Source: Marsupella aquatica (Eukaryota; Plantae; Marchantiophyta). Taken from it: DNA of 64,000 bases. The position numbers and the translations under genes were made by a program. This document shows, piece after piece, positions 21,819 to 56,117 of the stretch (the stretch's first letter is position 1; each line of letters begins with the position of its first letter). The stretch is taken from contig OZ316899.1 of NCBI GenBank assembly GCA_973895155.1, forward strand, positions 8,249,241 through 8,313,240. Direction: 5' to 3'. The notes below the pieces were generated by a model, which ran no database searches, was not told the DNA's origin, and saw only the letters and a program-made list of their open reading frames with translations.

Positions 21819-23646
21819 GCATCATCGATTCCAGTCACGGTACTCCATATACCATGGGCAGTTTTGACGTTCCCAATCGTAGACTACTCTGCCATTAGGA
21901 ACTTGGCCATCACATGGATACATGCTAAGGCTCCCTTTCGGCTCCATCCAAGATGTGAGTGCCCATGGCAGCTCTTTCAATACGGATGCATTCATGTTCT
22001 CCTGATTGATTAGAAATCTTGTCACGCACCTCTTTATGTCAATTCAAATTTCCCCGCCTAGTTTCAGTGATTTCTCTTGCACATAAGCTCAATAAAGCCT
22101 TCTGTAGAGCTTTGCAAATCCTCTATCCCGGAAAACTCACGGTACATCTGTGTTTGGTAGGCCTTTGCAGCAAAATCGGTCAAAATCACACAACCAACGT
22201 GGTCAATGTAACACCACATTGACCAGACCGCTAACCAGGATCTAATTGCAGCATCACCATTGCTACGTGGATGGTGATACATACTCTTCTCCTCCTTCGT
22301 TCCAAAATGAGCTTTCAATAGCTTTACTCTGCACTCTGTAGTTACCCAAGCCCCAGCAAACAAGCGGACCCTATCCAAGCCAACCTGTACATTCATCACA
22401 TCCTGCTTGGCATCCTTTGACAACTTGTGATACAGCTGCCGACATACCGGCATGAACTGGTCTCCATTGGCCGGATTCACGTAGGCTGGAAGCTTGGGGA
22501 AATTGTTGTCCCAGGCCTTGCATGCAACAATAATCATTGCCTCCGTCTCCTCCTCAGTTCTCTTCACACTCCACGGGTGCCCATGAGCTGCGTCTTGTGC
22601 CATCTCCTTGGAGATATTGATTTGTTCCGCTTCAATGTTTGACCAAGACATGATGTACATAGCGGCTTCTTTTGTCATATTCTTCGAGTACCAAGTCTTC
22701 CCATGTCCTCAATTTTGGGCCTTCATGAAAGTCTCCATTGTCTCCTTTGACATGAGCAAACTGTACTCCTCCAATGGAGTGTTCAATAGCTTTGCAACCC
22801 GATCAGCGTCATTAAACCAGGACGTCTTCACGACAGTCGCACTTATCCTGAAAATGACAAACAGTACTCATAGCGGCAATTTCAAAGAGGCTCCCCAAGA
22901 TGGCACACAAGGTTTACACAAATGGGTAATCACATTTTGCAAAAAGACGCAAATGAGAGTACTTACGAGTTGAGAGTGTGCATTGCTTGCTCAACCTTCT
23001 TGAATCCGTCACACGGATGGTATTGCAATTGATCTGGATACTCATAAGCAACTGCGGACCAGGCTGTGTATCTGTGGTTTCCATCAAAAACCCAAAACAT
23101 CTTGTCCTTAAGGACTTTGAACTCCTCTAATGTATCGCACTCTTGCTCAAATTGTTCATTGAGCTGAGTCCATAGAGGGTCCCAAAATGGCTTGAAGTCT
23201 GTCACTGTCTGCGTTTCTCCAATTTCATTGAACTCAGTAATGTGGAACTCGTTGAGCTTCACAACATAGTCGCTCTCTTTGAATCCTTTTTTTAATTTTG
23301 CAACCAACTCATCCTGAAGATTCCTCACTGCCTCCATTGGCATGAGCCGGCACAAGGGGATCCAGGGCGGATCCTTACTAAACTTTGTCTCATACTTGGA
23401 GATGATTGACTCCCAGGCTCCCTTCTTAGCAATATCAGCCAATTCCGTCGCTCCAGTAGGCTCAAATGATATCTGCTTTGGCTCAAACTTCCTCCTGGAG
23501 TTGACTGACTCCATAAGTGGACCACCCTGTGAGCACGTCAGTCAAGACATGACTGGCGAAGGAGACTTGGATCATGGTTTCTTACTCCGCTGAGAAGTTT
23601 GGCTGTCGGCAGGTCCAGCTCCAGTCGAGTCTTTCCTCTTCGGCAT
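21819..23646 (-). pseudogene. ParB/sulfiredoxin-like domain gene, copy 1 (intron 22848-22966), truncated by element A
   Basis: IPLCRL...VRNLQDELVAKLKKGF...FWVFDGNHRYTAW; GT-AG phase-2 intron; homologous along its length to 37531-41548. Confidence 0.75.
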
Positions 23647-24692
23647 TTTGACCTTAGATTACATGAGAAATAAAAGAGTTATTACTCGACAATAGCTGGA
23701 CCTATAAACCTGACAAGATCTCAACGAGCCCCGCCGAGAGAGCCAGTTTACAAGGATACGCGGGGTCCAGCCTCTCACACATTTGATTCATCTACAAATG
23801 GATTTGACATATCAAAAAAAGGGGGAGCCAAGAGAAAAACCTCAGAGAATCACCAACGCTCACTGAAAATCACTATCGCAAATGCTCACAAAAAATTGTT
23901 GTTGCAAATGCTCACGGAGAAGCGTCCACTAGCTCATTGCCTCAAAACACCAATGCAATCGAGTAGACATGATAACAGGGTTGCACAGGAGAGTTTACCG
24001 TGAGTGGGACGACTGAAGAAGAGCAAGAACAACGCGGATGTGAGTGCGGAGAAGTGAGAGATTGCACAAACCAATATGCGAAGATTGAGGAAGAGTGCGG
24101 ATTAGAGCGCAAACGAGTAAGGGATTGCGCAGAAGAGTGAGGCAGAGTGAGAAGGTTCTAGGATTAGTGATAAAGACGAGCGCCAAACCTAAGGTCACAC
24201 CGTGGAAGAGTGACGAGGAAGGAACGACATCCACTTCAAGGAATAACGTACCGCAGGTACTGCACAACACTAAAGTACGCAATAGATACGGGAGATCCTA
24301 ACTATACTTCAATACGTACATGTTGTTAACGGCCCAAACAAGAAAGTACACAATGCTAACGCGAGTATTGACCACCACTAGTACGAGAGAGTTTAGGATA
24401 CATTTAGGGTACAATTAGGGACTTCGGCCTACAACTCAAACGAGTCCGAATCTAGGAGACCCTTGCCGTCATTTCATTCTGAGGCCTACTAAGACGTGTC
24501 AACATCTCGGTGCCTCAGCTCAAAGAGGAAATGGTTGCCCACATGCATTATCATTTGGGTGGCTTAACTAAAAGAGGAAATTGGGGTTAAGAGAAGGGGG
24601 AAGAGCACAAGTCGACAAGATCAAGGAGGGTTTGTTGGAGGAGACTTAATAAATGCGGCCAATTATGTTTAGGGTTTTGTTTTAGTAAAGAA

Positions 24693-24713
24693 TTTAGGGT
24701 TTAGGGTTTAGGG
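24693..24713 (+). repeat. Interstitial plant telomeric motif (TTTAGGG)3
   Basis: Three exact copies. Confidence 0.85.
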
Positions 24714-24779
24714 TAAAATATGAGAAGTAGAAAAAAGTCCAACACTCTAGTGAACTTCATGGTAGAAAAGTACGCCTCT

Positions 24780-25820
24780 TGGGTCAAAAAGGTTGCCAGA
24801 TGAGACCCAACCTCTCAGAGACCCTCTCTGAGATGGAGTTGTGGGCATACTTTGGCCAGATGACACAACTTGTGGACCCTCTTAACAGTTTCAAAGGGTT
24901 AGCTACAACATACACTGTGTCTCTCAGAAACCCTCTCCGACATGAAATTAAGGGTATTATGTTTCAAAGGAAGGACCCAAATTGGTTCTATCCCACATCT
25001 GATGTTAGAGACCCTCTCTGAGATGGAGTGGTGTGGCCCGAACGGCCAGACGGAAAAAATTGTCAATCGCGTCTTGGGTGGAAAGGGAAGCAAGATTGCA
25101 ACCCAATCGCTCGGAGACCCTCTCTGAGATGGAGTTGTGTGCCCCAAGTGGCCAGAGAGCAGTTCTCCCAGATGGCCTCTTGGATCAAAAAGGTAGTCAA
25201 ATGAGACCCAGTCTCTCGGAGACCCTCTTTGAGATGGAGTCATGGGCGTACTTTGGCCAGATGACACATTTTGTGGACCCTCTTAACAGTTTCAAAGGGT
25301 TTGCTACAACATACACTGTGTCTCTCAAAGACCCTCTCCGAGATGAAATTAAGGGTATTCCGTTTCAAAGGAAGGACCCAAATTGGTTCTATCCCACATT
25401 CGATGTCAAAGACCCTCTCTGAGATGGAGTGGTGTGGCCCAAACGGCCAAACGGCAAAAATTGTCAATCGTGTCTTGGGTGGAAAGGGAAGCGAGATTGC
25501 AACCCATCGCTCGGAGACCCTCTCTGAGATGGAGCTGTGTGCCACAAGTGGCCAGAGAGCAGTTCTCCGAGATCGCCTATTGGGTCAAAAAGGTTGCCAA
25601 ATGACACGCAGCCTCTTGGAGGCCCTCTCTGAGATGGAGTCGTGGGCGTACTTTGGCCAGATGACACCACTTGTGGACCCTCTTAACAGTTTCAAAAGGT
25701 TAGCTACAACATACACTGTGTTTCTCAGAGACCCTATCTGAGATGAAATTAAGGGTATTCCATTTCAGAGGAAGGACCCAAACTAGTTCTATCCCACATT
25801 TGATGTTAGAGACCCTCGCC
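24780..25820. repeat. Tandem repeat, ~400-bp unit x ~2.6, with four internal GAGACCCTCTCTGAGATG motifs per unit
   Basis: Units begin near 24780, 25181 and 25581 (TGGGTCAAAAAGG...). Confidence 0.9.
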
Positions 25821-26044
25821 AAAATACAAGGATGAACCCAAAAGTGCATGCAAAAGCTGACCGTACAGTACTTTTCAATGTTTGTACAATCTAATTATGT
25901 GTGGATCGCGTGTCCATACAAATCTACCATCTCAGAGAGGCTCGCCAAATACAAATACAGTTGCCCAAATGACCCGAGTCCATCTCAGAGACCCCCGCCA
26001 AGAATAATTTAGGGTGGCAACTAAATGACACTTTGAGTGAGGAA

Positions 26045-26640
26045 GTGTTATATGGGCCGCAAGTGTCCCCAATCCACCACAGACAGGCTTGCCAGATAGC
26101 GCGACCGCATGTCAGAGACCCTCGCCAAGTAGGATTCTAGGTAAAAATCTATGGGAATCCATCTCAGAATCTTGGAGACCCCCGCCAAGAATGACTTGGG
26201 ATGAAAAGTAAATGACACTCAACGACCAAGGAAGTCCCTAATCCACCACAAAAAGGCTCGCCAGCTAGCACGACCGCATGTCAGAGACCCTTGCCAAGTA
26301 GGATTCTAGGTAAAAGTCTATGAGAATCCATCTCAGAATCTCGGAGACCCCCGCGCAAGAATGACTTGGGATGAAAAGTAAATGACACTCAACGACCAAG
26401 GAAGTCCCTAATCCACCACAGAGAGGCTTGCCAGATAGCACGACCGCATGTCAAAGACCCTCGCCGAGTAGGATTCTAGGTAAAAGTCTATGAGAATCCA
26501 TCTCAGAATCTCAAAGACCCCCGCCGAGAATGACTTGGGATGAAAAGTAAATGACACTCAGCGACCGAGGAAGTCCCTAATCCACCACAGAGAGGCTCGC
26601 CAGATTGCGCGACCGCATGTCAGAGACCCTTGCCGAGTAG
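26045..26640. repeat. Tandem repeat, ~170-bp unit x ~3.5
   Basis: AATCCACCACA...GACCGCATGTCAGAGACCC recurs at ~26071, 26240, 26410 and 26579. Confidence 0.9.
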
Positions 26641-27222
26641 GAAGTCGGAAGGCTATTTATTCATCCTTCAAGTCAGGATTTTTGCAAAGGGGATTATAAG
26701 CCACACGACGGAAGAAGAAGAAATGTTTTAGGCAAGACCAGACGGAATCTTGGAGAATATACTACATCCCTAGAGTTTGCATGTACCTTCTTGGCGGCTG
26801 CTGGCAAATATGTACCTTGTACATGTGTAGAATCTGTACCTTCTTGGCGGCTGCTAGCAAATAGGTACCTTCTTTGTGGTACAGTTGTTATATGTACGCT
26901 CCGGATTCTACAATCGTTATATGGTATGCACGTTGTCCGGAACGGTATTCTTGGCGTAAAGTATAGGTACTTTAACATCTGATGTACCGCCCAAGTTCTA
27001 AGCCTGAAAGTGCGGTATTATTGGCATAAAGTGGTACCAAGACTTTAACGTCTGATGTATAAAGCCAAAGGCCTAGGGACTAACATTCCCAGTGTGGATT
27101 TGGGACACATGGCTTCTCTTGTGATAATCCAATCAGTAAGCGGGGATGTTGTTGTTTTTTGTTAGATTGAGGGAGACAGTGTTCGAGTCACTAAGGAGCA
27201 TGAAGTAGCAAGCCGATTTAGT

Positions 27223-27957
27223 TTGAAGGTAGGGGATTTCATGATTTACGAGGAGAGAGAAGATGGGTTGTCCACTTCTGCTAAATCCAAAGGCGATGGA
27301 GATGAGCAAGAGTGGTATCTGAAATGTGGCGTGTCCTATACTATCTGCAAAAAGAAAGCAAGTTCATGCAATGTTAGTGAGGGTCTTGGAGATTTTGCAC
27401 ACTCCCCACAGATTGATGAACCAGGTGAATTATGGAACAATACACCGCGTCAGAAATTGCCCCAATTTTGGGAGGACATTCACCAAGTTGGTAGACCCCA
27501 CTCAAATTTGTTGCCAATGTGGCGGGATGTTGGAGAGGCAGATGAGCCAATGAAGGAGACACCTCGACCCAACGCAATCAATCTCAGAGGGGGTCTTCGA
27601 CATGGTGAACCTTCTTGATTGAGTACACCTAGGTCAAATTCATTCCATATGTGGGAAGATGTTGGAGACGTGGATACACCAGTGAAGGAGAAACCTCGAT
27701 CAAGTGCATTCAATCTCAAAGGGGGTCTTCGAGATGGTGAACCTTCTCAGACAAGTACACCTGGGTCCAATTCATTCCAAATGTGGGAGGATCTTGAAGA
27801 TGGTGATACACCAGTGAAAGAGAAACCTCAATCAAGTGCATTCAATCTCAGAGGGGGTCTTCGAGATGGTGAACCTCCTCGGACAAGTACACCTGGGTCC
27901 AATTCATTCCAAATGTGGGAGGATCTTGGAGGGTATAACCACCGTGCTAGCAAATAG
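27223..27957 (+). pseudogene. Uncharacterised ORF remnant built from 120-bp (40-aa) tandem repeats
   Basis: STPGSNSFQMWEDL...TPVKEKP.SSAFNLRGGLRDGEP repeated ~3 times with decayed copies upstream; one in-frame stop at 27616-27618. Confidence 0.45.
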
Positions 27958-28405
27958 TAAATAGATATTCTCATACGAGCCAATTTTGCCTTGTACAAGC
28001 AAAATTTTGTCTTGTACGAGTAAACAAGTTCCTCCTATGAGCATATCTATTTACTCGTACGAGTTTCTGTTTTCTTGTATGAGTTTCTGTTTTCTTGTAT
28101 GAGTATTTTTTTTTCTTGTATGCATTTTAGTTTCTTCTCTTCACGGTATGTAGCGTCCATATATGCAATAATTGTGCAAACAATATTATGGTGGGTCCCA
28201 CCATTGTACAACATCGGAGGAAATTTCTTGACAATTTCACACAAGGACTCCAATATATTGCCACAAAATATGAAGTCGAAACAAAGTCATACAATACCGG
28301 CGCTAGTATTGTATTATACAAAAAAACAACACTTTAAGAACTCACACTTCTGCCCGTTAGAAAAGACAAACTACAATTGTAGTTGTTCAACGATAAAGCA
28401 ACAGT

Positions 28406-31400
28406 CTACGTTCTCGTTCCCAACTGCCTATCAAGTATGTAACGGACTTCTCCCAACGTTAGAATTGGCTGGCTACATAATGTCGAATCGAGCACATCCA
28501 GTTTGAACACATTCTTGAACACCCAATACACATGTTTGCAAGGCATGTAAGGCTTCCGATAAGTATGCCGATGGTAGAAATCCTCGCAAGAGCAACATGG
28601 GAAACAACATATCTGAACCCAATAAGAGGTGACTGATCTCTCATGTTCATGGGTCCGGATACAAAACTGTTTCCCCGACGCATTTCCACTCGTGATCTCT
28701 CTCTCTCCAATGACGCTCATCACTTCTTTTTCAGAGGCTTCAATTCTCTTCAAATGTGTTTGGGTAAGATGCACTCTTTGCAAGCATTTCTTCCCGTTCC
28801 TTGAAGCGCACCTCACAGATGGGTCAGTTAGGTTGATCCTCTCCGGGAAAAGATTGACATCAATCTGTAACGCAGAAGGCAATGGTGCTTCGATTTCATC
28901 TCCACGGCCTTCAGAGAGAATAAGTCCTTGTTCTTTCAAAAATTGAATCTCTGCTCCAGAAAGATTGGTCCCTTTGGCAATTGGGAGATGTGAAGGAACA
29001 TTGGGAATGTTCGAGACTCCTCTCCTTGTTGTGCTTCGATGATAGTGGTTGTTGGGGCAAAACCATATTTGATCGTTATAAGGTTGCCCCCTGAACATTC
29101 TGCATCCTCTCACGGAAATTGCAACAACACCATCTGGATTCGGAAGGCCAACCTTCTTTACTCAATTTCGACATTCATCACGACTACCTCCCCGTCCAAG
29201 GGTTCTGTTACACATTGGACCCGCACCCCGTTTTCAGGTCCAACGCAACTGCCAGGCACCGGGAGGTACTTCACTTTCCATTGGGGAAACTGAATGACAA
29301 TATGCAGTCTCGACAGGTCTTGCAGGTGTCACTGGTGGGACAGAGGATCTCGTTGCTTGATGCATAGGTGTGTCAATGACCACAACTTCCTCAGAAGCAT
29401 TGCTTTCTGACAAATTATGGACCGCATCAATTCCACCAGCTGAAGGCGTAGAAGGCATTTTCTCGAAATCAGTGGAATGCAGGTTTCTCCTTTTCAAACC
29501 TTTTGTATTTGGTGAAGTAACAAGGATGGTATCATGCCTGTGCGAGTCTTCTGCCGAGACGTTCCCAGTTGCATGTCCTTTTCGTTTCACCGATCGAGTT
29601 ACAACATCACCATTCAATGGAACGCTTCTTTCCAAATCAAACTCAACAGCGTTTGACAGGAGGAGATTGGTGGCTTCCTCAAAGAGACGCGGTGACCCCG
29701 CCAGGTCCACCGATCTGAAGGCAAGCTCAAAAATAGTTGGGTCAGTTCCTCTGCTCAATCCCCTTTTGTATGTAGTATAAGCAGCAATTTGAGCAACCGC
29801 TCTATTTTGGTCCGTTTTGCATCCTTCAAACAGACCAACCTTTTTTTTCCAGTTGCCATGCTTTCATTCCAGCATGCCTAGATTCCGAACTAGTACAATT
29901 AGGAATCATCCCAGCCTCTTCGGCACTCTTGCTCTGAAACATTGCACGCAAGGGTTTAGTACATGTAAGAAATTGCACACAAAAGTGGCAACACAATGGA
30001 AATAACAATAGCGCCAGACGCTAATAAACTGATGATGATATTTCCATGTAAAGAACCATTTAACACAGAATAAAGGTAGTCCTTACATCACTCATAGTCC
30101 AAACGGATTATTAGCGCTCGGCGCTACTATTGCGGATAAGGAACTCTTCTATCTCACACATGCTTCACTAGCGCCAAGCGCTATTAATGGGAACATGCAT
30201 CCTAGAGCAGAGTATAACTCACCAGTCTTATGAAGTTCCCCCATTGTCTCCATTGGACAACCCACCAAGACAGCCACCCTTGCAGCATCCGAAGTTTGCC
30301 TGAGTGACAATTGCCAGACCTCCACCAGTCATCGATTTCCCTCGAGATTCGATATGCTTTCAAGAAAGTTGGTGCGTTCCGAAGACGATCCCACATCTCC
30401 TTGTGCTCTCCGTGCTTTCCATCTTTTACACCTTCTCGGGAATGACGATGAAAAGATTGGAAAAAATGAAAGGCATCTGATCTTTCTCGCTCTGGGTCGG
30501 GTACACCGTCAAAGAACACGTTTCGAACAACATTCCAACCAGCCTGAGCATTGTCCGCCATGAATCCCCGAATTGTAACATCTTGTAAACCATTTTCATC
30601 GGCAACCTCTAACATCAAACGCCAGGCTCTCTCTAGAGATTTTGCATCTTCGGCCTTTAGCTCACAAGTGAATATGGTGCAAAGTGCCCGGTAATGATGA
30701 TCATATACATGGGCACTGAAAGTAAGCCAATCTGCCGTGCTTCGATGCATCACGTCAAAACTTACCCATGAACCCTCTAACGACCCACCAGGTTTCATTC
30801 TTTGGAGCAGGTCCAGACCACTCCCGTCACCTTTTACGGTCATTTTAAAGATATGAGCACTCTCGTCCCGACAGCCTTGACCAGGGAGCAAGAACCTATG
30901 AAGAAAAGGCAGTCGGATACACTTTTGCATCCTCACAAGAAATTCCAGTTCCCCTTTCCCCTTCTGATCTTGATGGACACTCCTTAACACGGATGCAAAC
31001 TTCTGAGGAGATGCAACGACCATTAGGGACTCCCAGATTTCCTTCTCTTCTTCAAGAGAGATTTCTTCAATAGAGACCTCGCAAATGTATTCGTCAGTGT
31101 CTCAGTCGCAGAGTTTTTGATCCCTGTTGGGGATGCCATGGGGTTTGCAGTGAATCCCTTCTCCAGATGAGACCTTGCAACCTTTTCTGCTTCCCTCGAA
31201 AAGACCCGTCGACTGGGATGATTGTGAAATCCCATATGAACAGCTAGTCGCGACATGTGGGCCAAAGACTTAACGTCAACTTTTGCAGATGGATACATGT
31301 AGAACATTAGAGCAGGGCAGGCCTCAACGCACATCGGAGGTTCGGAGCAATGGTGACAAACAACTCCACCTTCGGAGATCAATTCCCCAACTCGGAATGG

Positions 31401-32190
31401 GCCCGAAAGTTTTGGGGTTCTTGCCCACATCTCATTATTTCGAAACTTGTTGTCTTTCCACCACGGACAAACATTATTTTGACACTGCAGCGATCCCTTA
31501 CACTGGACTTTCCCAAAATCCCACATTTTCTTGGGAAGAACATTTGAAGACGTTTTCACAATCCGATTCCAATAATAACAATCCTTACCATGATCCATAT
31601 CTTTCAAACGTTCACCTTTTGCGTTCACACTGTCTACCGAGGGTAACTCAAAAACCACATTCCCATTGTAAGATGTGGGAAGACTAGGCACTACGTGATG
31701 AACAAAATCACTCCCCCTTATAAACCGAGACAATTCACTATGACCTTTGGATTTCAAGATTGTATCCATTGCACTCTGCCGGTACACAGTCAAAGGCACA
31801 ATCATTTCTCGATCCGCATTAGACTCCTTTTTAACCTCAGATGGGTAAACTGGAATCTTCTCTCCAAGAGTAGTTGTCGCTTGCTTATCATCTCCAGAAC
31901 TTTCCGAGAGTTCGATGACATCGAGTTCAGCCGCTGTGGGAGGACGAGTATAGGAGGCCCCAGAATCTCTCAAAACAAAAACCTCATATTCTTTCTGAGC
32001 CTCCAGAGTCCAATATCTTTGACCATGAACAACATCGTAGAAAACTGGAGTCTCCCCCAAACAAACCGACACTAACGAGATCGCTAAAATAGACTCCTTG
32101 GTGACATCAAATCTCACTCCCAAATATTCCTCTGAAACACGCTTTGATTCAGATGATTCGAGGACGGGAATTGTGATTACATCCTGAGTG
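28406..32190 (-). pseudogene. Mutator-like (MULE) transposase 1: GCM-like zinc DNA-binding domain, DDE core, C-terminal SWIM finger; probable intron ~29935-30220
   Basis: CKGSLQCQNNVC...CHHC...C...HMGFHNHP; SFDVMHR / GFMADNA / DAFH / SESRH; CSCEDF...PCKHVYWVF; frameshift near 31030-31050. Confidence 0.8.
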
Positions 32191-32194
32191 TCCT

Positions 32195-35100
32195 TACCCC
32201 TGGTAACTGGGTTCCACCAATTGGAGTTGGACCTGATGAAGCCAAGCATTTAAATACTGTGGCTTGTGTCTTCAGCCGCTCCGTTTGGTTGTCGGCCCGC
32301 CGCTGTAGGTTCTCCATCTTCCTCGTGATTTCCTCCAACTCCTCTTGGGTCTCGTCCAGGTCCTTGCGCACCTCCTCTAGCTCCTTATTGGCTTCCTCCA
32401 ATTCTTTTTTCAAGGTAGCCCTCTCCTCCTGGGTTGCTCTTAGCTCCCTGTCGAGCTCTGCGACGACCACAAACTCCATCTTATTCATCTTGGCATAAGT
32501 CTGGTCGAGTTGGTCGTCCTTTTCACGCAGGTCGGCCTTGAAGCTGGCCGTCAGGGACGCAAGCTCCTGCTGCAGCGCAATAATCCTTTGATAGGATTTC
32601 CCTAACTCTGCTTCCTTCTACTCAAGGGCTCCGCGGATATCTTTGAGCTCTCCTTTCAATGCCCTCTCCCTTCTCTGGTTCTCCGCCATGGCCCGATTGT
32701 TGGTTGCTAAGTGGGCTTCCTCTACATCCCTTAGCTCCCGCTTCCATTTCTCTCTCTCCTTGACTGCGCCGGCCAACTCTCCTTGGGTCCGAGTCAGTTT
32801 ATCTTTGATAATCTGATTGTCAGACTGAGCGGTATCCAACTGCCCCTGCATGATGTTTAGCTCATGCCGCTTAATCCGCAACTCATCTTGGGCTTTCTTG
32901 GCTGCCTGCAGGTCTTCCACCTTGGCTTCCTTCTCCCTAAGCCGCCGGATGACCTCGTCCTTCTTGCTTCTCTCCAAAGCCACCGCTTCTTCTAATTGGT
33001 GCTTTTCCAACATCTCCCTCTGGAAAAAGGGTCCCTGCTCCAACTCCTCCCCAAAGATGCTGAGCGCCAAGTCCCCACACATCTCCCCGTACTCCATGGC
33101 TCTATCCTTAGCATAGGTGGAGTAACTAGAAGTCATCGGCATCAACCACCGCGGCCTCTGCTCCCAAGCCGTCTTGCGGATTTCTTCTACGGTGGCAAGA
33201 GGGTTGCTTCTTTTCTCGGCAAGCCGCTTGATGTCCTCCGGCCAATCTCCTCCTGGTAAATCCTTCTCCCTAGCCAGGACTGCTCTCTCTTCCTCCCTAA
33301 GTCGCTCCTGAAATTCTTGTGCCATCTGCTTTATGCCGTCAAAGCTCGGGGGAGCAACCTCTGGTGGTGGAGACTCGGTGTTACTCTGCTGGGTGGGGTC
33401 CCCTCGAACAACTCTTGGAAGTGTGGGGATAAATCGGCCACAGGTCCTTACTCCTGGAACATGATGATCCGACCCATAGTTGGAGTTATCATTGTTGTAG
33501 TCTTCCATTGCCTCCTCCACTACTTGGACTCCCGGCTCCTCTGCCTCTGATTCGGGGCTTGAGGCTCCCACGTACATTTGCACTCCCGGCTTGTGTTCCG
33601 GCCTTAATCTCTCCTTGGTTCTGGTAAAGGGGTCTTCCCTTCTGAGTCGGCTTAGGTCGACTTCTGGGGCAGCGTCCTATATCGGTGTCGTTGCCGTTGC
33701 CGGAACCGTTCTCTTTTCCTTCTCCAACAATTTTAGCAGATTTTGCATGCCTGGTTGCTGCATCGGCAAGTCTTCTTTCCTTGGCCTAAACACCTGCTCG
33801 ATCGTCGGACTGTCGGGCTGGTTGGGCTTCTCTGGTGCCGGCCTCTGCTCCGGGACCTCCTCCGGTGCCCTTGCCGATAGGGGAAGTACTGGGGCAAAGA
33901 TTTGACTTTTGGCATACCGGCACAACAGCGGCATGTGATAGCCAAGCCGGGACACGCTTCCCACGCCGATCACCTACTGTTCCTCCTTCAAGATCTTCTT
34001 CAGTTGGTTGAGGAGGTACCCGTTGTAATCCCGGCTTGGGTCTGGCCTTTCTGCCAGGTAGACCTGAGACTTGCCAATCTCTGCCCTCGGCAAGTTATAG
34101 TGCATGGTCACTCGCAAGAAATCAATCATCTCTCTGATGTGCGGGTTGGTGCAGGTGTTCCGGAAGAAGCCATTCTTCGTTGATGGTCCTGGGAACGACC
34201 GGAACTCCTTGTCAGGTAAGGTCTTCCTGGTATCAACCTTGGTCTTATTACCCATCGGCAAGCCAAACACCTCAGCAATCACCCGGGGAGTGAGATAGAA
34301 ATCCTTCCCATACACCCTCGTGGAATTGGTCTCGGGTTCCCATGATCCCACGAATTCTAACAACTCTGAGTCCGGCACCTTCGGCTTCAGCCATGGTAAT
34401 CTTACGAAGGCTTCCAAGCCGGATCCGGCCATGAAGCCTTGGTACTTCTTGGTCTGCATGGCTGTAAAGCATGCATCCTCCTCCCATGCAAAGTGTAATT
34501 GCACTTCCTCCGGTAGGGTCGCCGCCCAACCTTTCCAGGTGTCATCGTTTGTTGGAATGGCATTGATGGGATTGACCTCTTCCTCATCGGCTTCTCCCCT
34601 TGTCCTGCTCGGCTGCTCTACTGGCTTCCTAGGTGCCGCCGACCTCGTTCTTTTTGCCGGGGTGGCCTCTTCGTTGTTGTTTCCTTTCCTCTTCATCTCG
34701 ATTGCCGTGGATGTTTCTCCTAGCAAGGTTGCCTTCGTCCACCCCTCCGTGTTACCCTTCAACTCCCAGTGTAGGTCGTTGCAACGATTGATGGCTTCTC
34801 GGATGCCGACAATTTTGTTTTTGCAAAACAGAAGGTCGTCGAGTTGATTGGTAGTAGGAGTCCACAAGAACTCGGCCTTGATAAGTTCTCCTCCTAAGAA
34901 AGCCGTCTTCTGCAGTTCCCAGAGCCGAGCGAGCTCCTGCCGTTCTCGAGCTGCTCTCTCCGATTCTTCATCCTCGTAAGTCCTGACGTACTCACCTGCC
35001 CGTTCGAACAGGCATCCCCAAAAATGTGCCGCTTGATTGACATTGCTCATACCCTCCTTGAGTCGATCGTTGGTATCTGTTCCCACCCCGAGTGCTTGCC

Positions 35101-35428
35101 TAAGCAACGGACAGCATTTGGCCTCCCATAGTCGTCTGCCCAGTTCGTTCTTGTAAATGAGCCACTATTCCTCACGAGTGGTCCTTACCCCTCTCCTCCT
35201 CTGGTCTCCCCTCCCGTTGGTCACCCCTAGCCGCCGACGCTTAGCGCGCCCTAACCCTAATCGTGTTCTCTCCCCCGGCGTCCTCACTTCCGGCCTCGGC
35301 CCGGGTTCCATAGTCACCCTTAATTGTTTATATTTTCCTTGTTTTTTGGTCCTATACTAAGGTGTTTCCAGGGTACACTCCTGCTTACCATGTAAACCGG
35401 GCTTAGTGATTCCTGGCTAGGCATCACA
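32195..35428 (-). mobile_element. Family-X LTR copy 3, 3'-truncated, with its ORF (ATG 35311)
   Basis: Minus strand begins TGTGATGCCTAGCC at 35428, inside GFMAD of transposase 2; ORFs 33974-35107, 33677-33973, 32618-33583 and 32177-32488 match copy 2; homology stops at ~32195. Confidence 0.92.
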
Positions 35429-36632
35429 TCAGCCATAAAACCTTGAATGACAACGTCCTGTAACCCGTTTTCCTTACAAACCTCAATCATAATTCTCCAC
35501 GCTTTCTCAAAGGACTCCGTGTCTTCAACTTTTAGTTTGCATGTGAAGATTGTACAAAGAGCTCGGAAGTTGTGATCGTAAACGTGTGCACTAAAAGTAA
35601 ACCAGTCGGTTGTCACTCACTTCATCACATCAAAACTCACCCAAGCTCCTTCCAATCTTCCGCCGGGTTGCATCTGCCGAAGAAGATCTACACCAGATCC
35701 ATGACCCTTCACTGTCATTTTGAATATATGGGGCCTATCTGCTACACAACCCTGACCCAGCAGGAGGTACCTTTGGAGGAAAGAAATGTTATTTGACCTT
35801 TGCATCCGAGCTAGGAAATCTAACTCACCACGACCAGCCTGGTCCATTCGAATGCTTTGACAAAGCGATGCAAATTTCTGGGGGGTAGACAGTACCATGA
35901 GAGACTTCCAAATCTCCGTTTCTTCAATATCTACTATGTTGTCGACGTTTTTGCAAAGAGCTTTCACGAGCAAACCGGTTGCGGAATTCAAAATACCTTG
36001 GAGAGCGTTCCCTCAATGGGAGGCAGTTCAAATACAACATTTCCGTTGTACTTTTTTGGCAAACAAGGAACTTGCTCATGCCGGAAGTCCCATGCCGAGA
36101 TAAATCTTGACAGTTCACTATGTCCCGTGGCCTTGAGTAAGGCGTCCATCGCACTCCTCCGGTAGACTTTATGACCAACTCCGGAGGTAGCCACCGGCTC
36201 ATCCTTAACAAAAGCGAGAACTGGAACTTTGTACTGCGATGGAGGAGTGGGTGCAACATCACCATCTTCACTGTCAGATATGTCAACAACAACAACAGGA
36301 ATGTACCCAACTGCTGGTTCCGGAGTGACACGTCTGACATTAAGCGTGTAACTAAGCCCGACATTCATATGCCAAAAGCGTACTCCCTCATCTACATCAA
36401 ATGCCGCAGCCCGTTGAAGTTCTCCACTTGTCGATTCCTGCGGAACAATGGACTCAATATCATTCATCCTCAAATCAAATCTCCCGCAAAGGTAGGTTTC
36501 ACTAACTTGCTTGTAAGCATCAGAAACTTGCACGGGGATCTTGACCACGTCTCCGGTACAAGCATGTGTAATTACAATTGAGCGAGATATTGTGGAGAAA
36601 ATGAAGGAATCAACAAAGCAAATTCCTCCCAA
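35429..36632 (-). pseudogene. Mutator-like transposase 2 (N-terminal half, GCM region deleted), cut by X copy 3
   Basis: Paralogous to transposase 1: YRRSAMDALLKATGHSELSRFI, YNGNVVFELP, HIFKMTVKGHGSG, WVSFDVMK, FSAHVYDH, GFMAD. Confidence 0.85.
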
Positions 36633-36822
36633 ATGGAATGCTTATACTAATGCGTGAAGATGACTGACCGTTATAAAAGTTGTTTGAATACGACATAGAA
36701 TTGTGTCCGTTGAAATCATAAATGTAGAGTTTGTCCTTTTTGCCCCGGTAAGTGCGGGTGTCAGGGATATTTTTTGTGTCAAAATGAACACATATAGGCC
36801 AAGATAATTCACATGATTTCAG

Positions 36823-37211
36823 CAGCGCCTGGCGCTACCAAAAATTCCAGTATTTATAAGGTTAGAATTCAGTCACACACCAGACTAGCGCCGGGCGCTA
36901 GCATTACAATGGACACCAATAAGTCTACTTTTTTGTATCCAAAAATGCAATATCGTCCAAATTTAAGCACAATTCAGGGATATATGTACTAGCACCGGGC
37001 GCTAGTATTGGTACACCATATTTAAGGACCAAATCTGATCAAAATTGAACTTCGTACGCCTAAAGTTCTTCATTTTCAAAAATTTCACATAAACTGGGAC
37101 CAAAAACAGAATCGTGAATAGACCACGGAATGGGTAGCGTCGGGCGCTATCTATTGAACACATTAAACTTTATGACAATGTGGGTCAAGTTTGACTAGCG
37201 CCCGGCGCTAG
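36823..37211. promoter_or_regulatory. Cluster of five TAGCGC-N3-GCGCTA palindromes in the divergent transposase / ParB-like intergenic region
   Basis: Copies at 36823, 36886, 36990, 37135 and 37196, each with 0-1 mismatch, in an AT-rich background; function inferred only. Confidence 0.6.
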
Positions 37212-38978
37212 CAATGCATTACCAAGTTTTAGTAGTCTGGTCAACGGTAATATTTAACGGTAACTACGGTTAGCGTGATCTTCACAAAAACAGTTTAGCG
37301 GATTTTACATTGATATCTGTCACAATTCTTAGATTGTCGCTTTGTTTTAACGATAAGTAATACCCAATTTCATCGTAACATCTCTTAAATAGATTACATG
37401 GAGGGAGATAGCACTGATCAATCGGGTATAATACTCCATCAACTATCTATTAATTTGGTACGGAGATTCAGTACTTGATCGTGAGATTTGTAGTGTACGA
37501 CTGTTTGTACAACACTCATCGCGGGAGACGATGGATGCAGTCCCCTCCTCGTCGAGGGGGTATAGTGTTGTTGGGGATCGTGATCGTGGCTATTGCAAGT
37601 CTTTTGAGTCTTCATTTTCAGGTTCAGTGTATACACATCAAGTGACGAGGTCAAGCGCATCGCTTGTTCCCATCTCAAGTAATTTGTTTCCGAAGCCGAC
37701 GCAAAAAAAGATGGAGAATGTTGACACATTTGCAATCGGAGATGTCTCATTCTCGGAGACCGACCTTATTTCAAAACATGTCATGTTCTTTGGGAAGGAT
37801 TTCCAAGGGTTTAACAAGGAGCCTCCTAGGATTCCGCTATGTCGGTTGGTGCACATGGAGGTCGTCCGCACTTTGCAAAAAGATAGCTCCTCCATTGACA
37901 AGTTGAAAGACTCTTTTCGTAGTATGGGATACAATTCGTTGATAGGAATGAGGTTTTATGTTCAGCCGGCGGACGCTGAGGGTGTGACGCTCACTTGCAC
38001 ACAGGAAATTTGTGATACTTGGGATCCAACATGGATATCCAAAAACAAAAAGTTCAAGGAAGAATGTGCGGCAGACCTCGATTTTCTCGTTCTGAAGGAT
38101 AAGATGTTCTCAGTTTTTGACGGGAACTATCGGTTGTACTCCTGGACGCTTGTCACTAAGGAGAATCCAGAAAACACGAAATACCACCCATGAGTGCTCT
38201 GTACTGTCTTCAATGGGGACAAGGGTTCACTGATTGAAATTGAAGTGGCGATGCACACCGTGAACCAGTAAGTTTGTCTTTTTAGCATATCTTGGAGAGG
38301 AATTGTTTTATGAGCGCCCGACGCTGCTTAAATGTTTTTCTAATTGCTTTCTTTTCCTTCAGGCTTGGACAAGCCGTGGTCGAACCGTCATGGATCCTTG
38401 ATGCAGATCGAATCAAGAGGATTTTGATTCACGACCTGGAGTACTATAGTAAGCTCATTGACCCTGCACATTATAAGAAGTTTGAGCAGATCAGGTTGAA
38501 GACGCGGAAAGGATCCTGGTACACAAAGAAGATGCCTCAAAAGGCTCTTGTCTATATTCTATGTGAGAATAAGATTAAATCATATTCTAACCAGTTCAAG
38601 CTTGACATGGAGTCCGCTGCGGCCCTAGGTACCCCTTGGTCGGCCGAGGAGGTTTCCACAAGGCATGCTGTAATGATGAAGGAGGCCACCAAGGAGTGGG
38701 CAGTGAAAACATCAAAAATCACTCCTTTGTTGAGTCCAGAATTTGAGGACTTTCTGTCTACGTGCGTAGAAATGTATGCTGTGACAGAGAGAAATAAGCG
38801 AGAGAAGAAACCAGATACCGTCTTGTGTACGATGGACCGAGCCAGGCTTTTTACTGCTGTTTCCGCACTCGACCCCAAGCTCAAGAGTACTTTGCTTGTC
38901 GCCCATTGCAATCCTGAGCTCCAAAGGCAATTCTTCCATCTGAACAGCGTCAATGATGATCCAGTAAAACAGTGGTGT

Positions 38979-41009
38979 TGTAATGCTGTACATTAGTTAG
39001 AAATGATGGGAATTTTATAAATTTTAAACTTTTTCTAACTCAAAGGTGCAATTTAGTTACCTTTTGTAGTAATTTAGATCAACTGAACACTTTACCTAAC
39101 GTTATGCTTCATCGGAGGCTATTGCCTCTATTGGATAAGGATCGACAATATAAATCCTTGCTCTTTACATGCTACCAAGAAAGAAGACTGGACATCATTG
39201 GAGAAGCAATGTAGGCTAGAAGATTCAAGAACCGGACTCCAAAACACTTCTTCAGCAAGAATGAGCTCTGTGTGCAATTATCACGATCAACCGATCTTTG
39301 CTATTTTAATTAAATAGCTATCATAGTCAGAAAAGTCTCATACTTTTTCAGGAGTTAGTAGTTACACCTGCAAGTTTCATCTCAAACCGACATGTGGTTT
39401 GAAAGTTAGAATTAATTTAGTTTTACTGTTTTTCGCATAGCCGCGACTTCGCCGACGCTTTGTGAAGCGTCCCTTGTATTTTTGGACGCTTTGAGAAGCG
39501 TCCACCCAAGACCACGACGCTTTCTGAAGCGTCCACCACCCAACCAGCTGTACTCCGACGCTCTGCAATCCACATGAGCACCGACGCTCACAGAAGCGTC
39601 TGCTACCCCGAAGGCGACCTCGACACTGTGACGCCCACTGAAGCGTCCCGCCCGGAGCCCAGAAAATGGACGCTGCGACCAAAACCTCAAAATTCAGCCG
39701 ACGCTTTCTGAAGCGTCCATAAAAGTCCTTTGTAGGTTTGGACGCTTTCTGAAGCGTCCACTATGTTCCCGACACTTAGAAAAAATTTCAGTTTTCGCAC
39801 TTTTATAACACCGCCCCACTTTTACCGATTTATTTGAGGCACTTAGAGATCTCAGAAAAGTCTGAAACTTTGTCAGCATATAGACTATATGTAGTAGAGT
39901 ACCCTAGAAAAGTTTCAACTCCTTTCGACTTTTAGTTTAGAAGTTAAAATTAGATTAAGATAACTGTTTATTAGTTTTACCGAAAACACCGACGCTTTGC
40001 AAAGCGTCCGCTCAAACCTCGACGCTTTGAGAAGCGTCCCCTGCATTTTTGACACTTTCAGCAGTGTCCATTCACTTTTCAAGGATGACCGTCATTAAGT
40101 TTATTCAAGACCCTTTAAATATGAAAGGGCATGTCCTTTCTGTATCTCAGTCTCCTTGCGTTCCTGCCAGCCTATATGAAGTAGAATTTGTGTCATTCTC
40201 GAGTGTGAAGAAATAAAGTAGTGCCTATGGCATGTGCTGCAACACTGGAATCACCTTTGCAAAACTTTCGAGTGTTTTCGTATGGTATGGAGCTTGCAAA
40301 TGCAAAGGGATTCTTCTCCCTTCCTTGGTCTGAATGATTGAGAGTTTAGATCATTGAAGTAAAATTACTTGTATGAAGTTGAATCTCAGAAGTATGAGGG
40401 AATAGATTCCTTAAGTGGTGACAACCCATCTTCTTGAGTTCTTGATGCATAGTTTTTGGCATGACATTGCTTGTGCACGGATGCAAAGATTGTTACTCAC
40501 CAATTACCTGTGACTTCAATTTGATCATGATGGTGTTTATTATTCGTGACTCAGAGTACCGACTGGATATCGAAGTGATTGATTACTAGTTTCTTCTGAG
40601 TACCTTTGGAAGGAAAAGTTGAGACGTGTTGATGGCATTTTAGTAATCATCCTAGTACAGTAATCCATTCCAGAAATGTTCTTACAGATTTACCACCCAA
40701 ATAACATCAAATGAAGTATTGATGAGAAGTTACCTTGGTGTTTTCCAGACTCCCTCATTATACCTCAAGATTTCATTGTGTTTTGTTATTTATTTCCATT
40801 TTATTAATTGCATTTACAATGTTAAGCAAACATTCAAATCTATGTCTTGCTGAGCAATCATAGTAAAAGGCTCAAACCTGTGTTTTTGTTACCTTAGTCA
40901 TTCATAAGTGTTAAATGATAGAAAATCATTCCTTTCTTGTTCTTCCATGGGATCGAATACCGAGTTTTGGACATTAAATGCTGATTTATGTCCTTAGTGC
41001 AATACTACA
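38979..41009. mobile_element. Solo LTR C, 2031 bp, non-coding
   Basis: TGTAATGC...ATACTACA termini; 5-bp TSD GGTGT (38974-38978 and 41010-41014); host reading frame restored on removal. Confidence 0.88.
39450..40070. repeat. Dispersed palindromic repeats GACGCTTTNNGAAGCGTC inside solo LTR C
   Basis: About ten copies, e.g. 39454, 39485, 39516, 39700, 39741, 39991, 40021. Confidence 0.85.
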
Positions 41010-41648
41010 GGTGTCATACCTGGATTACGTGGAACAATGTACAGGGGATTGCAGGGGGGATGTTACAGTGTGCTTTGAGAGAGGTCCAACAAATCATTCC
41101 CAAGAATCGCTTGCAAGCCTGGGCATGTGAATCTTTTGAAGCTCTCATTGATATAGTTACTAATGATTTCAAGAGATACAGAGACTCGGTGAAGAGTAAG
41201 TTTTTTAATACAATGTGGCCTTCGAAGTATCTAGACAAAGAGGACTACTCTTTGAAGAACCAGAAGCGAGCAAAAAGGTACCTCTACCAATTTTACATCC
41301 ACATGGAAGTAACTAGACCTGATTACTTCTGGGCATATCCTGTCGCTTTTCAGAAGTGGACAGTAATATCAGAAGGTGACAATTTATCTGATTTGTACTC
41401 TATGTACCCCGCGGAGGGAATTTTCCCAGCGAGACCTTTAAGTGAATGGGAGAGAACCCACTATCCATGGTACCTAGATACATATAGATGGGACTCGCCC
41501 TTTAATCACCGAGAAAAGGATGCTTTCCACAAGCTCTCTAAGTCCTAGGTACCAGTCAATATTGTTTCTGACATGAAGCAGGGACTAGCGGACGATGTAG
41601 ATAAGTCCACAAAGAATTGCAAATGAACTGTGAGACCACAGTTGTTCT

Positions 41649-44600: not shown

Positions 44601-45328
44601 TTGTGCTCCTGCCTCGTTGTACATAGGTAGATTACAGTCAGGTTAGATTAGGCTTATGCTGCAAGGAATTGGGCGGATCCACTGCCAGGATAAGTACCTA
44701 GGCAGCGGGGGGTTCAGGGCCTTCTTCCTTAGCAAGTTTTTAGTGCAGCAGCAGGGCTGGGATCAAGTAGTTAAAGAAGCTCTCGGTAGTTATGCTGTGA
44801 CCCTTGTGTATATTCATGTTTCCTCATACCTAAGATGAATAGAGTTGGCCTCATGGCTTAGTTCGCAGATCTTGTGTATGAGAAGTACTGTCTGTATGGC
44901 AAGTGCATGGTATAACTCAGTCAAAAGAAGTCATTTTGCTATTTGTGTGTCGCATTAACTTGTTTGAAGATTGCCCACATCAACCAAGAAGGGAGTAAGC
45001 AAGGTAGTAAGAGTTGGATGTGTCGAGTTGAGAGAGGTCTTAGCGGCTTACCCAAGCCAGTTGGGGATCATTCTGGCGGCGGAATCCAAACATACCTAAA
45101 GGAAGACCAGGAGAGGAGGACAAGGGAAGGCATAGAAGAGGCCGGCTACGTATCACATGACCCGATGAAGGATCTGTCCAATATATGTGTGTAAAATGTT
45201 AGTAGAAGGAAGTTAGCAGCGTCCCATGCCGCTAAGCCATGAAACCGGCCTCGCCAAGAGCAAAACCTGCGGGAATCGGCTTGTGCAAGGGGGTTTCTTG
45301 GGTTCAGGGAGCCATGGGACGCACCACA
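41649..45328 (+). repeat. Family-X LTR copy 4 acting as the 5' LTR of D (first ~350 bp missing; ~690-bp internal deletion near 43536)
   Basis: Colinear with ~10590-15006; deletion joins GGAAGAGAAA to TCCTATCA through GAAA microhomology. Confidence 0.92.
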
Positions 45329-49129: not shown

Positions 49130-49460
49130 GCCGCTATCCGTGTCCATTGTCCGTGTCAGTTGTCCGTGTCCGTTATCCGTGTCCGCTATCTGTGCCTGCT
49201 ATCTACTATCCGTGTCCGTTGTCTGTGTCCGTTGTCCGCTATCCATTGTCCGTGTCCGTTGTCCGCTATCCGTTGTCCGTGTCCGTTGTCCCGGGTTTAG
49301 TCTAACCCCAATCTAAATCCGCTAGCCACTAGCCACTATCCGGTATCTGTATCCGCTAACCTCTATTTGCTATCCGCTATCCGTGTTTGCTATCCGTGTC
49401 CGCTAACCTCTATCCGTATCCACTATCCGTGTCCGCTAACCTCTATCCTTATCCGCTATC
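49130..49460. repeat. Degenerate short-period tandem repeat (TCCGTG / TCCGCTA / TCCGTTG)
   Basis: Continuous 6-7-nt units; lies in an unassigned, LTR-like non-coding segment ~48400-50850. Confidence 0.85.
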
Positions 49461-50880: not shown

Positions 50881-51250
50881 TTACATAAACCTATATCGAG
50901 CCATTCCACACCTTTGTGGGAATGCGGCTTCATTCTTGGCCCCAGTCTCCTTGAATTTTGAACAATTCAAATTCTGACATTGAACAACACCTGTGCAACG
51001 GACCTTGAAAATAGAGCAGTGGTTGCATGGCTTCAGGTTAGCAGATGTGGTGACCAATCTTGTCCATGGGTAGCCATCACTATCACAATCCATGTCTAGA
51101 AGCCCTTGCCCTTGCCCAAATCTTGATTCCACAGGAGGAAGCTCATAGACCTTGTTTCCATTGTAACTTGTGGGAAGTCCATCAACTTGGGAATCAACCC
51201 ATGCAACATCTCTTCTAAATCTAGCAAGCTCACTAGCCCAAGTAAAATTA
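50881..51250 (-). pseudogene. Third Mutator-like GCM-domain fragment
   Basis: SELARF...LPTSYNGNKVYELPPV...DGYPWTRLVTTS...CTGVVQCQNLNC matches transposase 1; ends at a GTAAG donor-like site. Confidence 0.8.
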
Positions 51251-53560: not shown

Positions 53561-53639
53561 ATATCATTCAGCTCCAATCAAGCATGATGATATAATCGCA
53601 CCCACAACCACTTTTTCTTGGACGAGACTGAGGGGGGCG

Positions 53640-53855: not shown

Positions 53856-56117
53856 CCCAAAAAAACCAAAAACATTGGTTACCCCTTATTTTGTTGGTCA
53901 TCTCTGTCCCCAATTCCTCTGCATCCTTTCACTTGTGCCCTCACGGTGTACAGGCTTTACTAACTCAAGACAATAATAGGCCTGCAAGGTAGCTTTCGAT
54001 CGACGCTCATTGGTTTATTTTAGTTAACATGGTTTATTTTAGTTAACATGTCCTAGCCTATGGTTGATGATGAGGGGTCTCGTGCAAAGATTTCACCACA
54101 AAATACAATATGGAGCCTGATAAGACCCTGCCCTGTCCGGCCAAGTGAGACGCTCCACAACCACCCCTCGGACCTGGTCATGGCAAATGCAGCTTGAGCC
54201 TGACATTACATAATTGTGCCTGGCAGCTGGCGGCTTAGGACTAATCAATGCAACCTATCATTAATTACCCTTGTCATATTCATTCGCCCTTATTTGGAAA
54301 GACGGTCCATCACAATTCAATGGATCGATGGCTGTACTGGTGAGTCATCATAATAATAAGGACCCTAAACTGGCCCCCATCCTTGTTGGCTCAAAGCAAG
54401 ATAGAGTGGGTCTAAGTTGAGAAAATTTAATACCCATCTCAAGACCTATTTGTAATAACATTTTGAAGCGTACAATAGTACCTTAAAGAAGGGAAGTGAG
54501 TTTGAAAAAATTCAAATTCAAAAGTAGTCCACACAGTAAGTTGTAACTACCAGAGTATTGACTCGTCACAGTACAATGATGAGGGCAACGTGAGCGCAAC
54601 TGCTTTACTAGACTTTGTCCAAGTTATGGTGGGAAGGAATTTGAAATTGTACTACCTCTAATCCATCGTTGGATTATGAAGATCGATGGTGGGAGGTTTA
54701 GGGCGAGCATTGTATGATCCTGACCGCCCTTAGTTTGCAAGAAAGATCAGGACCCTACGTTCATAGAGCATGCGGGAGGGGTATAACCACCGTGCCAGGA
54801 AACAGTAAAAAGGAAACAACAAACAGTAAAATGGATGAGAATTTTTGGAAATGTTTGGGAATTTTTTTGGGAATTTTTTTTTGTGGGAAATTTTCTCCTT
54901 TTTTTTGGTTTGTATTTTTGACAATTTTTTACTAGCGCCCCAAGCTAGTAATAGTAGCGCCTGGCGCTAGCCAAAAATGATCGTTTTAAAAAATATTTTG
55001 AAAATTTTGAGTTTTAATAAGAAATTTTTTATATCTCATTTTTGCTCATAACAGTAAAATTTTGCTCATAACGGGATATTATTTTCCTGTTTCCTGACAC
55101 GGTGTAAAGCCTCTGCGGGAGATTGTTGGTCACGACTGAATGTTTGCCTCCGAAGTTGAGCAAGGCGAACCGATGTGCTGCCGCAATTCTGCAAAGAATG
55201 TAGGCTTGTTGCACATTCAATGGTGCTTCCAAGCTTGTGTGATCGATTGGAGCTTGTAGGTGTGATCAGTAATTGGTGAGCTAGCATGATTGACGGACAA
55301 TCAGACGACATTGGATTGAGTTCTTTGATTGCCAAAGTAACTTTATTTGCGCAGGCTTTGATTTGGTTGCTTTTGATTTGCGGATAGTTGTAAAATTTTG
55401 TTTGCCTCTCCAGGATTTGACATTGTTGGCGCCTTAGCCATTGATGTTACAATTGACATGATTTCTTTGTTGTTTGCAGACCTCATTAGAGCTAGGAGGT
55501 GCGGACGTTGCACGGGGCAAACAACATTAGAGCTAGGAGGTGTGGACGCTGCACTGGGTGCTTGAGCCAAATGTCCCCTAAGCTCAGACAAGACTGGTAT
55601 ATTTTGGTCCTGTCATTATAATCTTTTGAGGCAAGAGGATTAAGCTTAGGTCCGTATAGTATGGCGCTCTTGCCCTTATAATATGTTGAACGCCAGGGGA
55701 TTAAAAGTCCCGAGATGGAGTCTCCTCCATGTACACTAATTCAATTGTGGAAATGCTGCTAGAACTTGCATTTTAGGCGTTCGAGCTAGGACAACATTGG
55801 AGCCGGGAGGTGCGGGAGGTAGAGCCAAACGGACAGGTATACTTAAATGCTCTTGCCCTATAAATCTTTTGACACAAGGGGATGAAGCTCAGGTTTGGAT
55901 CTAGTATGGCGCTCATGCCCTTATCATTGGTTCAACATCAGGGGATTGAACTTTGTGAGAGTCTCCGTCATGTTTATACAATCATCCAGCAGTTGTCAGT
56001 TGCATTAGGCAACATTTGAAATGGGGCAAGAGGTGGAAAGCATACATTTCTCTCGGATGCTCGTTAGTTGTCATTAGTTTCATTGATCCTGGCAGACCGG
56101 AGCAGTCGCTTAGCCAG

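Follow-up and report, generated by a model that had tools for sequence, protein, structure and literature searches.

Conserved palindromes in the non-coding DNA of a plant Mutator-like transposon group, candidate binding sites of an element-encoded ParB-like protein

The window analysed in this work, a stretch of 64,000 nucleotides from the liverwort Marsupella aquatica (contig OZ316899.1), is a nest of plant transposons, and the element copies in it are dead. An array of five palindromes sits between the transposase gene of one element (B), on the minus strand, and a divergent gene for a ParB-like protein, on the plus strand (Table 1). The transposase homology is 224 bp away from the start of the array, and the ParB-like ATG follows 321 bp after its end. 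Two further elements, A and C, and a miniature element lie in the same window, and C has a head-to-head layout like that of B, with the ParB-like gene running from 23481 to 21834 and the transposase starting at 27109. The window covers neither the partner gene of A nor the ends of B, so the terminus, transposase, sites and ParB-like gene are never seen together in one element.

Table 1. Coordinates of the transposon genes, termini and palindromes in the window
Feature	Position	Strand	Remarks
Element C ParB-like gene	21834..23481	-	second broken copy; divergent from transposase C
Element C intergenic region	23720..26640	.	20 copies of an imperfect palindrome of about 25 bp, consensus CATCTCAGAGACCCTCGCCGAGATG, mostly in tandem repeats
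Element C transposase fragment, P0007-type, 5'	27109..27930	+	interrupted by element A at 27931
Terminus of element A	27931..27946	+	GGGTATAACCACCGTG
Subterminal palindrome of element A	28287..28314	.	partly deleted in the window; other copies have the missing 7 letters
Element A transposase gene	28406..32207	-	putatively Mutator-like; D-D-E candidates and C-terminal CxC...CxH (SWIM-like) finger
Three palindromes (30009, 30112, 30169)	30009..30183	.	in transposase A intron (about 29934-30222)
Element B transposase gene, 5' part	35428..36599	-	putatively Mutator-like; broken, cut by retrotransposon fragment at about 35428; tblastn with relatives P0002/P0003
Palindrome 1	36823..36837	.	cAGCGCC-T-GGCGCTA
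Palindrome 2	36886..36900	.	perfect; 17 bp counting flanking C/G
Palindrome 3	36990..37004	.	single G>A at 36994, not in most other copies
Palindrome 4	37135..37149	.	single C>T
Palindrome 5	37196..37210	.	perfect; 17 bp counting flanking C/G
Element B ParB-like gene	37531..41548	+	broken; exons about 37531-38269, 38343-38990, 41020-41548; stop at codon 221
335-bp miniature element	54779..55113	.	terminus as A, imperfect inverted ends, 8-bp target duplication TGCGGGAG

The transposases of A and B are 64% identical in amino acids over 174 residues and 66% identical in nucleotides, and their N-terminal regions diverge widely (49-63% identity by block). No Pfam match was obtained for the transposase. 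In the ESM Atlas its best score was 0.88, nine of the ten best family-bearing matches fell in one family or clan, and MULE/SWIM clusters were listed. The protein contains D (FDVMH), D (ADNA), DxFH and an E candidate (SSESRH), which we take to be MULE motifs, and its assignment as Mutator-like stands at the level of a lead only. The earlier note had spoken of a GCM-type transposase; an N-terminal Cys/His-rich region is indeed conserved, but neither Pfam nor PDB sequences gave a match that would confirm the GCM label. Elsewhere in the window, a broken gene on the minus strand (51270-53600) is fused to a transposase fragment (50923-51234) and contains HFTSGQPAR, presumably a motif of RecQ/tyrosine-recombinase-linked elements.

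The ends of the elements were examined by comparing the region 27850-28550 with contigs of four public sequencing runs. In all four, 6-11 contigs per run depart at 27931 into unrelated flanks, empty-site contigs are also present, and overlapping contigs continue from the 27931 terminus into the last transposase exon; 27931 is therefore taken as the end of element A. This defined terminus, seen for one end of A, recurs at many loci. The first 16 letters of the miniature element equal the A terminus, with 88% identity to A over 34 bp. The duplication on both sides of the miniature element, a single case, lies within the range of 8-11 bp given for Mutator-like elements in a passage of PMC6446971. 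A terminus-like sequence, CACGGTGTACAGGCTT, related to the end of A and of the miniature element, was also found at 53942-53957.

Contigs of public runs also bear on the state of the palindromes in other copies. The stretch is present at 30-43% of sampled words in two organisms and at 8% in a third, and the region 36300-37700 gave 225-268 aligned contigs per run in three runs and 16 in the fourth. Position 36994 is G in most of the depth in all three runs covering it, and this is the only arm change among the differences listed (40 of 272). At 28296, all four runs have contigs with the 7 letters that the window lacks, and these complete an eleventh palindrome. Other copies keep intact sites. 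In the run of the third organism (X5), palindrome 5 with some downstream letters (37193-37239) reached a summed depth of 1378, compared with at most 31 elsewhere; this module may sit in another repeat in that organism. One diverged contig, whose match seemed confined to sites 3 and 5 plus some short blocks (depth at the joints 29.8), was discarded, as its sides span 25-38 letters and palindromes may match anywhere.

The motif of the array is TAGCGCC-N-GGCGCTA, that is, two 7-bp arms and a 1-nt centre. The five palindromes are present where the earlier note had placed them, but the variable 3-nt centre that it described is in fact a single nucleotide, with position 7 being C in nine and position 9 being G in eight of the ten window sites. 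With up to two mismatches, the whole window has these ten matches against a shuffle mean of 0.70 and a maximum of 3 (0 of 100 shuffles reach 10), and the 931-bp intergenic stretch has five against 0.005 (maximum 1 in 200 shuffles). Nine of the ten sites have at most one mismatch, and five of the six single mismatches are C>T or G>A, an excess expected of methyl-cytosine decay. Outside each arm there is a weak extension, S-Y-A-W-W. The spacers of the array are unrelated, as had been proposed: self-BLAST of the intergenic stretch returns the palindromes alone, and flank identity among the five array sites is 9-23 of 46 positions over ten pairs. Within the window, this dyad motif with unrelated spacers upholds the look of dimer-binding sites, and tandem duplication was rejected as the origin of the array. 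Helitron 3' hairpins were also rejected since no CTRR follows the sites, and TA-flanked mini-insertions since the flanks extend as inverted, not direct, repeats. Six of the seven window spacings deviate by no more than about 0.15 turn from whole turns of 10.4 bp, a weak hint of helical phasing from a post hoc test (p = 0.045 for the best period, 0.076 with 10.5 fixed) in which a 6.9-bp period fits equally.

A tRNA or primer-site origin was considered and set aside; two primer-site-like stretches of retrotransposons (4842 and 45334) have the half-site as well, but not the dyad. One primer-site-like stretch, TTTTTGGCGCTAG, follows an LTR-like copy ending at 45328 and is accompanied by a zinc-knuckle gag; the similar one at 4842 comes after a different LTR. 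Four pieces of one LTR-like repeat of about 5 kb, with coiled-coil ORFs, lie at 10236-15006, 32195-35428, 41650-45328 and 1-1849.

Beyond the array, five more sites and the partly deleted one, absent from the earlier note, occur elsewhere in the window. By place, the 11 sites are divided into five in the B intergenic region, three in the A intron, one subterminal in A and two in the miniature element (54933, degenerate, and 54955, perfect). All 11 are non-coding, so the proposed confinement to non-coding parts of one transposon group is borne out within the window. The motif count is zero in the coding DNA of transposase A (1986 bp), in the ParB-like gene of B (4018 bp), over 7.4 kb of retrotransposon sequence, in the left 21.8 kb of the window and in the intergenic region of element C. 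The motif is nearly the sole DNA common to the site-bearing non-coding regions, the other shared piece being the terminus of A and the miniature element. The motif is real, conserved and linked to the elements, a plant Mutator-like transposon group in whose non-coding DNA the palindromes are kept.

Exact 17-bp scans found 3 viral and 112 metagenome loci, 80 of the latter with full flanks. Among all 115 loci, none matched the window (blastn) or the element proteins (tblastn) at E<=1e-4, and related loci were found neither by a ParB-like search of viral contigs nor by a transposase search of viral and prokaryotic genome contigs. The loci comprise 106 with one site, two with two sites, six with one common GC-rich three-site sequence and one (L104) with four sites. 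The six (L007, L015, L017, L030, L056 and L094; GC 0.52-0.55) carry the same sequence with three clustered TAGCGC palindromes, which is probably bacterial and unrelated. L104 is an AT-rich metagenome contig of 1310 bp with four B-type palindromes at 196-477.

The L104 sites derive from a duplicated unit of about 165 bp (75% identical) and include one hairpin of 31 bp; some window sites also extend into longer hairpins, such as 28287-28314. Such cases would suit palindromes whose role is structural, in DNA or RNA (hairpins, cruciforms, nucleosome phasing), or which are left over neutrally from an old hairpin duplication, a reading that we regard as quite improbable. A 1-nt loop makes a poor hairpin, the flanks in the window are unrelated, and sequence is kept rather than symmetry alone: arm positions 4-6 do not vary in any of the 20 half-sites, and pair changes of a compensatory kind were not seen.

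Binding of the sites by the Mutator-like transposase, as internal transposition enhancers or in self-regulation of the two divergent promoters, appears rather unlikely. Its gene is the only one seen near every autonomous cluster in the window, the miniature element retains the ends and two sites, and the distance between the terminus of A and one site is about 360 bp. The terminal sequence of A and the miniature element is, however, without the motif, and the motif is common to A and B although the N-terminal regions of their transposases diverge. A Mutator transposase can be a sequence-specific activator according to part of bioRxiv 10.64898/2026.08.24.746577, but in the same source the AtMu1c transposase peaks at terminal repeats, whereas 8 of the 11 sites here are intronic or intergenic.

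The ParB-like protein is the other candidate of the element. The B copy of its gene is collinear with residues 150-705 of P0170 from Riccia, and a retrotransposon cuts it before the methyltransferase-like domain. Exon 1 has relatives in 150 clusters (HMMER), and among ten clusters looked up six were from Riccia sorocarpa and three from Adiantum; a short-word search for longer ParB-like relatives returned 0 of 715. Neither Pfam, PHROGs, NCBIfam nor PDB sequences gave a significant match to a ParB or helix-turn-helix domain. The protein modelled was not that of the window but the Riccia relative P0172, 31% identical over exon 1, with a mean pLDDT of 62 and values mostly above 85 over residues 11-170. 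Foldseek returned no match to this model at E<=0.001. In VIA-align against 48,161 chains the top two were KorB-CTP (Z 7.6, rmsd 2.6, 95 aligned) and PadC (Z 6.9), and in a second look ParB/Noc chains reached Z 7.2-8.6 and true ParB chains 8.3-8.6, against 5.7 for sulfiredoxin, all values being near the tool's stated background for large models. ParB 7bnk aligned with Z 8.6, rmsd 2.2 and 94 residues. Three ParB/Noc chains align through the DNA-binding region, loosely (rmsd 5.4-12.5), and others by the N-terminal domain only; 179 of 180 residues of Caulobacter ParB 7bm8 align to model residues 21-359 (rmsd 5.6), and 196 of 199 of Noc 7ng0 to residues 25-392 (rmsd 5.4). A helix-turn-helix match is absent among the best 50 rows of the wide fold search. 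The earlier note had called the parS analogy speculative as no such domain was recognised. This doubt is partly relieved by the model, in which the relative has an N-terminal ParB/Srx fold and matches ParB/Noc, loosely, in the DNA-binding region too, and by the methyltransferase-like tail of the family.

Several residues of the family are conserved in 80 aligned rows, three of which are downstream exons without the N-terminal domain: R42 in 70, G126 in 73, N in 75, H in 73, R129 in 69 and N175 in 64. The nucleotide-pocket motif of ParB is GERRxR (passages of PMC7333895 and PMC11790492), and its glutamate is crucial for CTPase activity (PMC11790492). The corresponding P-motif of the family is W/F-D/E-G-N-H-R (DGNHR), or DGNYR in window copy B; GERRxR(A) does not occur there, and the crucial glutamate is missing. 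In the exon-2 alignment, D-R-x-K/R-x-F marks a conserved helix, preceded by a stretch in which B and C are not alike. As a lead from the ParB consensus, we take helix and stretch to resemble a ParB DNA-binding domain with a long insertion. No ParA-like Pfam match was found among 39 scanned ORFs of the window, in which the elements are truncated.

Liverwort and fern relatives of the ParB-like protein end in a DNA-methyltransferase-like domain. The tail of P0168, P0171 and P0170 matches PHROGs at E 1e-7 to 9e-7 (9e-7 for P0170), and the matches of relatives to Pfam N6_N4_Mtase, at E 9e-6 to 5e-5, are below the curated cut-off. The model of the domain had a pLDDT of 34.5 and was left out of the comparisons. 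In P0170, a motif IV-like sequence at 961 precedes the SAM-binding motif I DFAGGWG at 1131, in the beta-class order. The catalytic (D/S/N)PP(Y/F/W) is replaced by DLPTG, DMPSG, DMPTG or DVPFG in all five relatives with the region, and in Marchantia DN4MT1 it reads TSPPY (part of bioRxiv 10.1101/2021.02.12.428880). The motif being degenerate, marking by the tail may not be enzymatic. Both window copies of the ParB-like gene end before the tail, which the window gene probably once had.

We propose, with a probability of roughly 0.55, that the palindromes are family-specific binding (loading) sites of the ParB-like protein encoded opposite the transposase. This protein is favoured over the transposase as the reader because of the ParB/Noc alignment of the Riccia model and the methyltransferase-like tail. 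A dimer would read the two 7-bp arms. If it behaves as ParB and KorB do, nucleotide binding (probably of CTP) would be followed by closure of the protein and sliding along the element. The methyltransferase-like tail would then modify or shield the element DNA, or regulate the two divergent promoters. Sliding, marking and shielding, which are drawn from the analogy, are less certain than the dimer binding. A bolder prediction, which we hold only tentatively and consider doubtful, is a working ParB-type nucleotide-switched clamp that loads at the palindromes of its subfamily (TAGCGCC-N-GGCGCTA for A/B, CATCTC...GAGATG for C), spreads over the element and, by the methyltransferase-like domain, marks or shields it from host silencing.

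Element C, the more distant of the three, provides a comparison, with a different palindrome in the place that the array has in B. This palindrome occurs in 20 copies against a shuffle mean of 0.065, the pattern having been derived from the same copies, and three further copies lie in the transposase C fragment (132-nt coding repeat, 27583-27865). The ParB-like gene of C is diverged (30-64% identity by block), and together with the different palindrome this fits a reader and site that diverge together, as judged from one comparison of two elements in which the C repeats could be a separate insertion. The zero count of B-type sites in C, with another palindrome instead, speaks against a host transcription factor used for element expression, e.g. 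in germline tissue. Such a factor would suit the position of the array close to the starts of both genes, the four-site array of the same motif in the unrelated contig L104 and the motif common to diverged elements, which is expected if the reader is a conserved host protein. The sites in an intron, at a 3' end and in a gene-less miniature element are, on the other hand, harder to explain in this way, and to our knowledge no plant factor has this 15-bp site. We consider a host factor unlikely. An insertion at 39327-40070 inside ParB-like gene B, probably another small DNA transposon, has ten GACGCTT-N4-AAGCGTC palindromes, several about 31 bp apart, and no ParB gene was seen in it; such arrays are therefore not specific to ParB-bearing elements.

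The idea of a ParB-like protein with target repeats is already in print for red and brown algal transposons. In Bostrychia Plavaka transposons, inverted-repeat arrays beside PAG3 (ParB-like with 2OG oxygenase) were proposed as binding sites (part of bioRxiv 10.1101/2025.02.11.637652). Both cases have a DNA transposon, a ParB-like accessory gene and neighbouring inverted repeats. The algal one has an EnSpm/Plavaka transposase, an oxygenase tail and tandem arrays beside the gene, whereas here, in a land plant, the element is Mutator-like, the tail methyltransferase-like and single sites are spread over intergenic, intronic and subterminal DNA and the miniature element. The Ectocarpus element Sola1-1_Ec32 has an accessory gene with ParB-like and N4C/N6A methyltransferase domains, for which self-binding and self-modification were proposed (PMC12477816). 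The two domains and the strand opposite the transposase are the same; the brown algal element differs in its Sola transposase, the passage names no target site, and the plant relatives have a degenerate catalytic motif.

With ParB-parS, Noc-NBS and KorB-OB the system has in common the ParB N-terminal fold, as modelled, candidates for the conserved arginine and asparagine, and a palindromic site (passages of PMC7333895 and PMC11790492). In the oligonucleotide of the KorB operator, TAGC and GCTA likewise enclose a 1-nt centre, but the arms here are 3 bp further from the centre and the resemblance may be chance. In contrast to ParB systems, no ParA partner and no replicon were seen, DGNHR stands for GERRxR, and there are long helical insertions. 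VANC motifs of VANDAL Mutator elements (YAGTATTAY) are 8-9 bp long, of one orientation and spread by tandem repeats (part of PMC5735166). VANC and TnpA are accessory proteins that read motifs of their own transposon, and the VANDAL motifs and Spm TnpA clusters are, like the sites here, family-specific and short and lie in non-coding parts such as upstream regions and introns (parts of PMC5735166 and bioRxiv 10.64898/2026.08.24.746577). The VANC analogy of the earlier note thus holds for placement and fails for form: here there are a 15-bp dyad, unrelated spacers and a candidate reader with a ParB fold, although the other motif of C does sit in tandem repeats. Further background came from passages of PMC1702500 and PMC4738411. 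At most, the system works like ParB-parS, and we do not file it as ParABS, VANC or an active methyltransferase.

A land-plant transposon with a ParB-like gene and target palindromes was not found in the literature searched, in which subscription journals are thin and preprint supplements (Bostrychia Table S6, Ectocarpus Supplementary Material 3) may list cases. The land-plant variant of this emerging class of candidate transposon accessory system appears to be new. If the palindromes are docking sites, the element could use them to tell its own copies from other DNA and possibly to mark them. If binding and sliding are both true, a bacterial chromosome-partition mechanism would have been reused for self-recognition by a plant transposon, with a possible programmable spread of a chromatin effect from a 15-bp site. 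A true clamp would mean a parS-like load-and-slide system on eukaryotic chromatin, whose sites and reader diversify together as in VANC/VANDAL. The candidate site offered by the locus is short and exact, the second subfamily, whose site differs, can serve as a control for specificity, and protein can be made from relatives that are annotated at full length in Riccia and Adiantum.

Other repeats were observed in the window. Near a transposase-like ORF (62522-63379) lie a cluster of several unrelated hairpins of 19-27 bp (59850-60130) and a repeat with a 23-bp unit and GTATTGG/CCAATAC dyads (58948-59277). A TGTCCG satellite with a 13-bp unit occupies 49134-49467, and telomere-like TTTAGGG repeats occur at 24690-24720.
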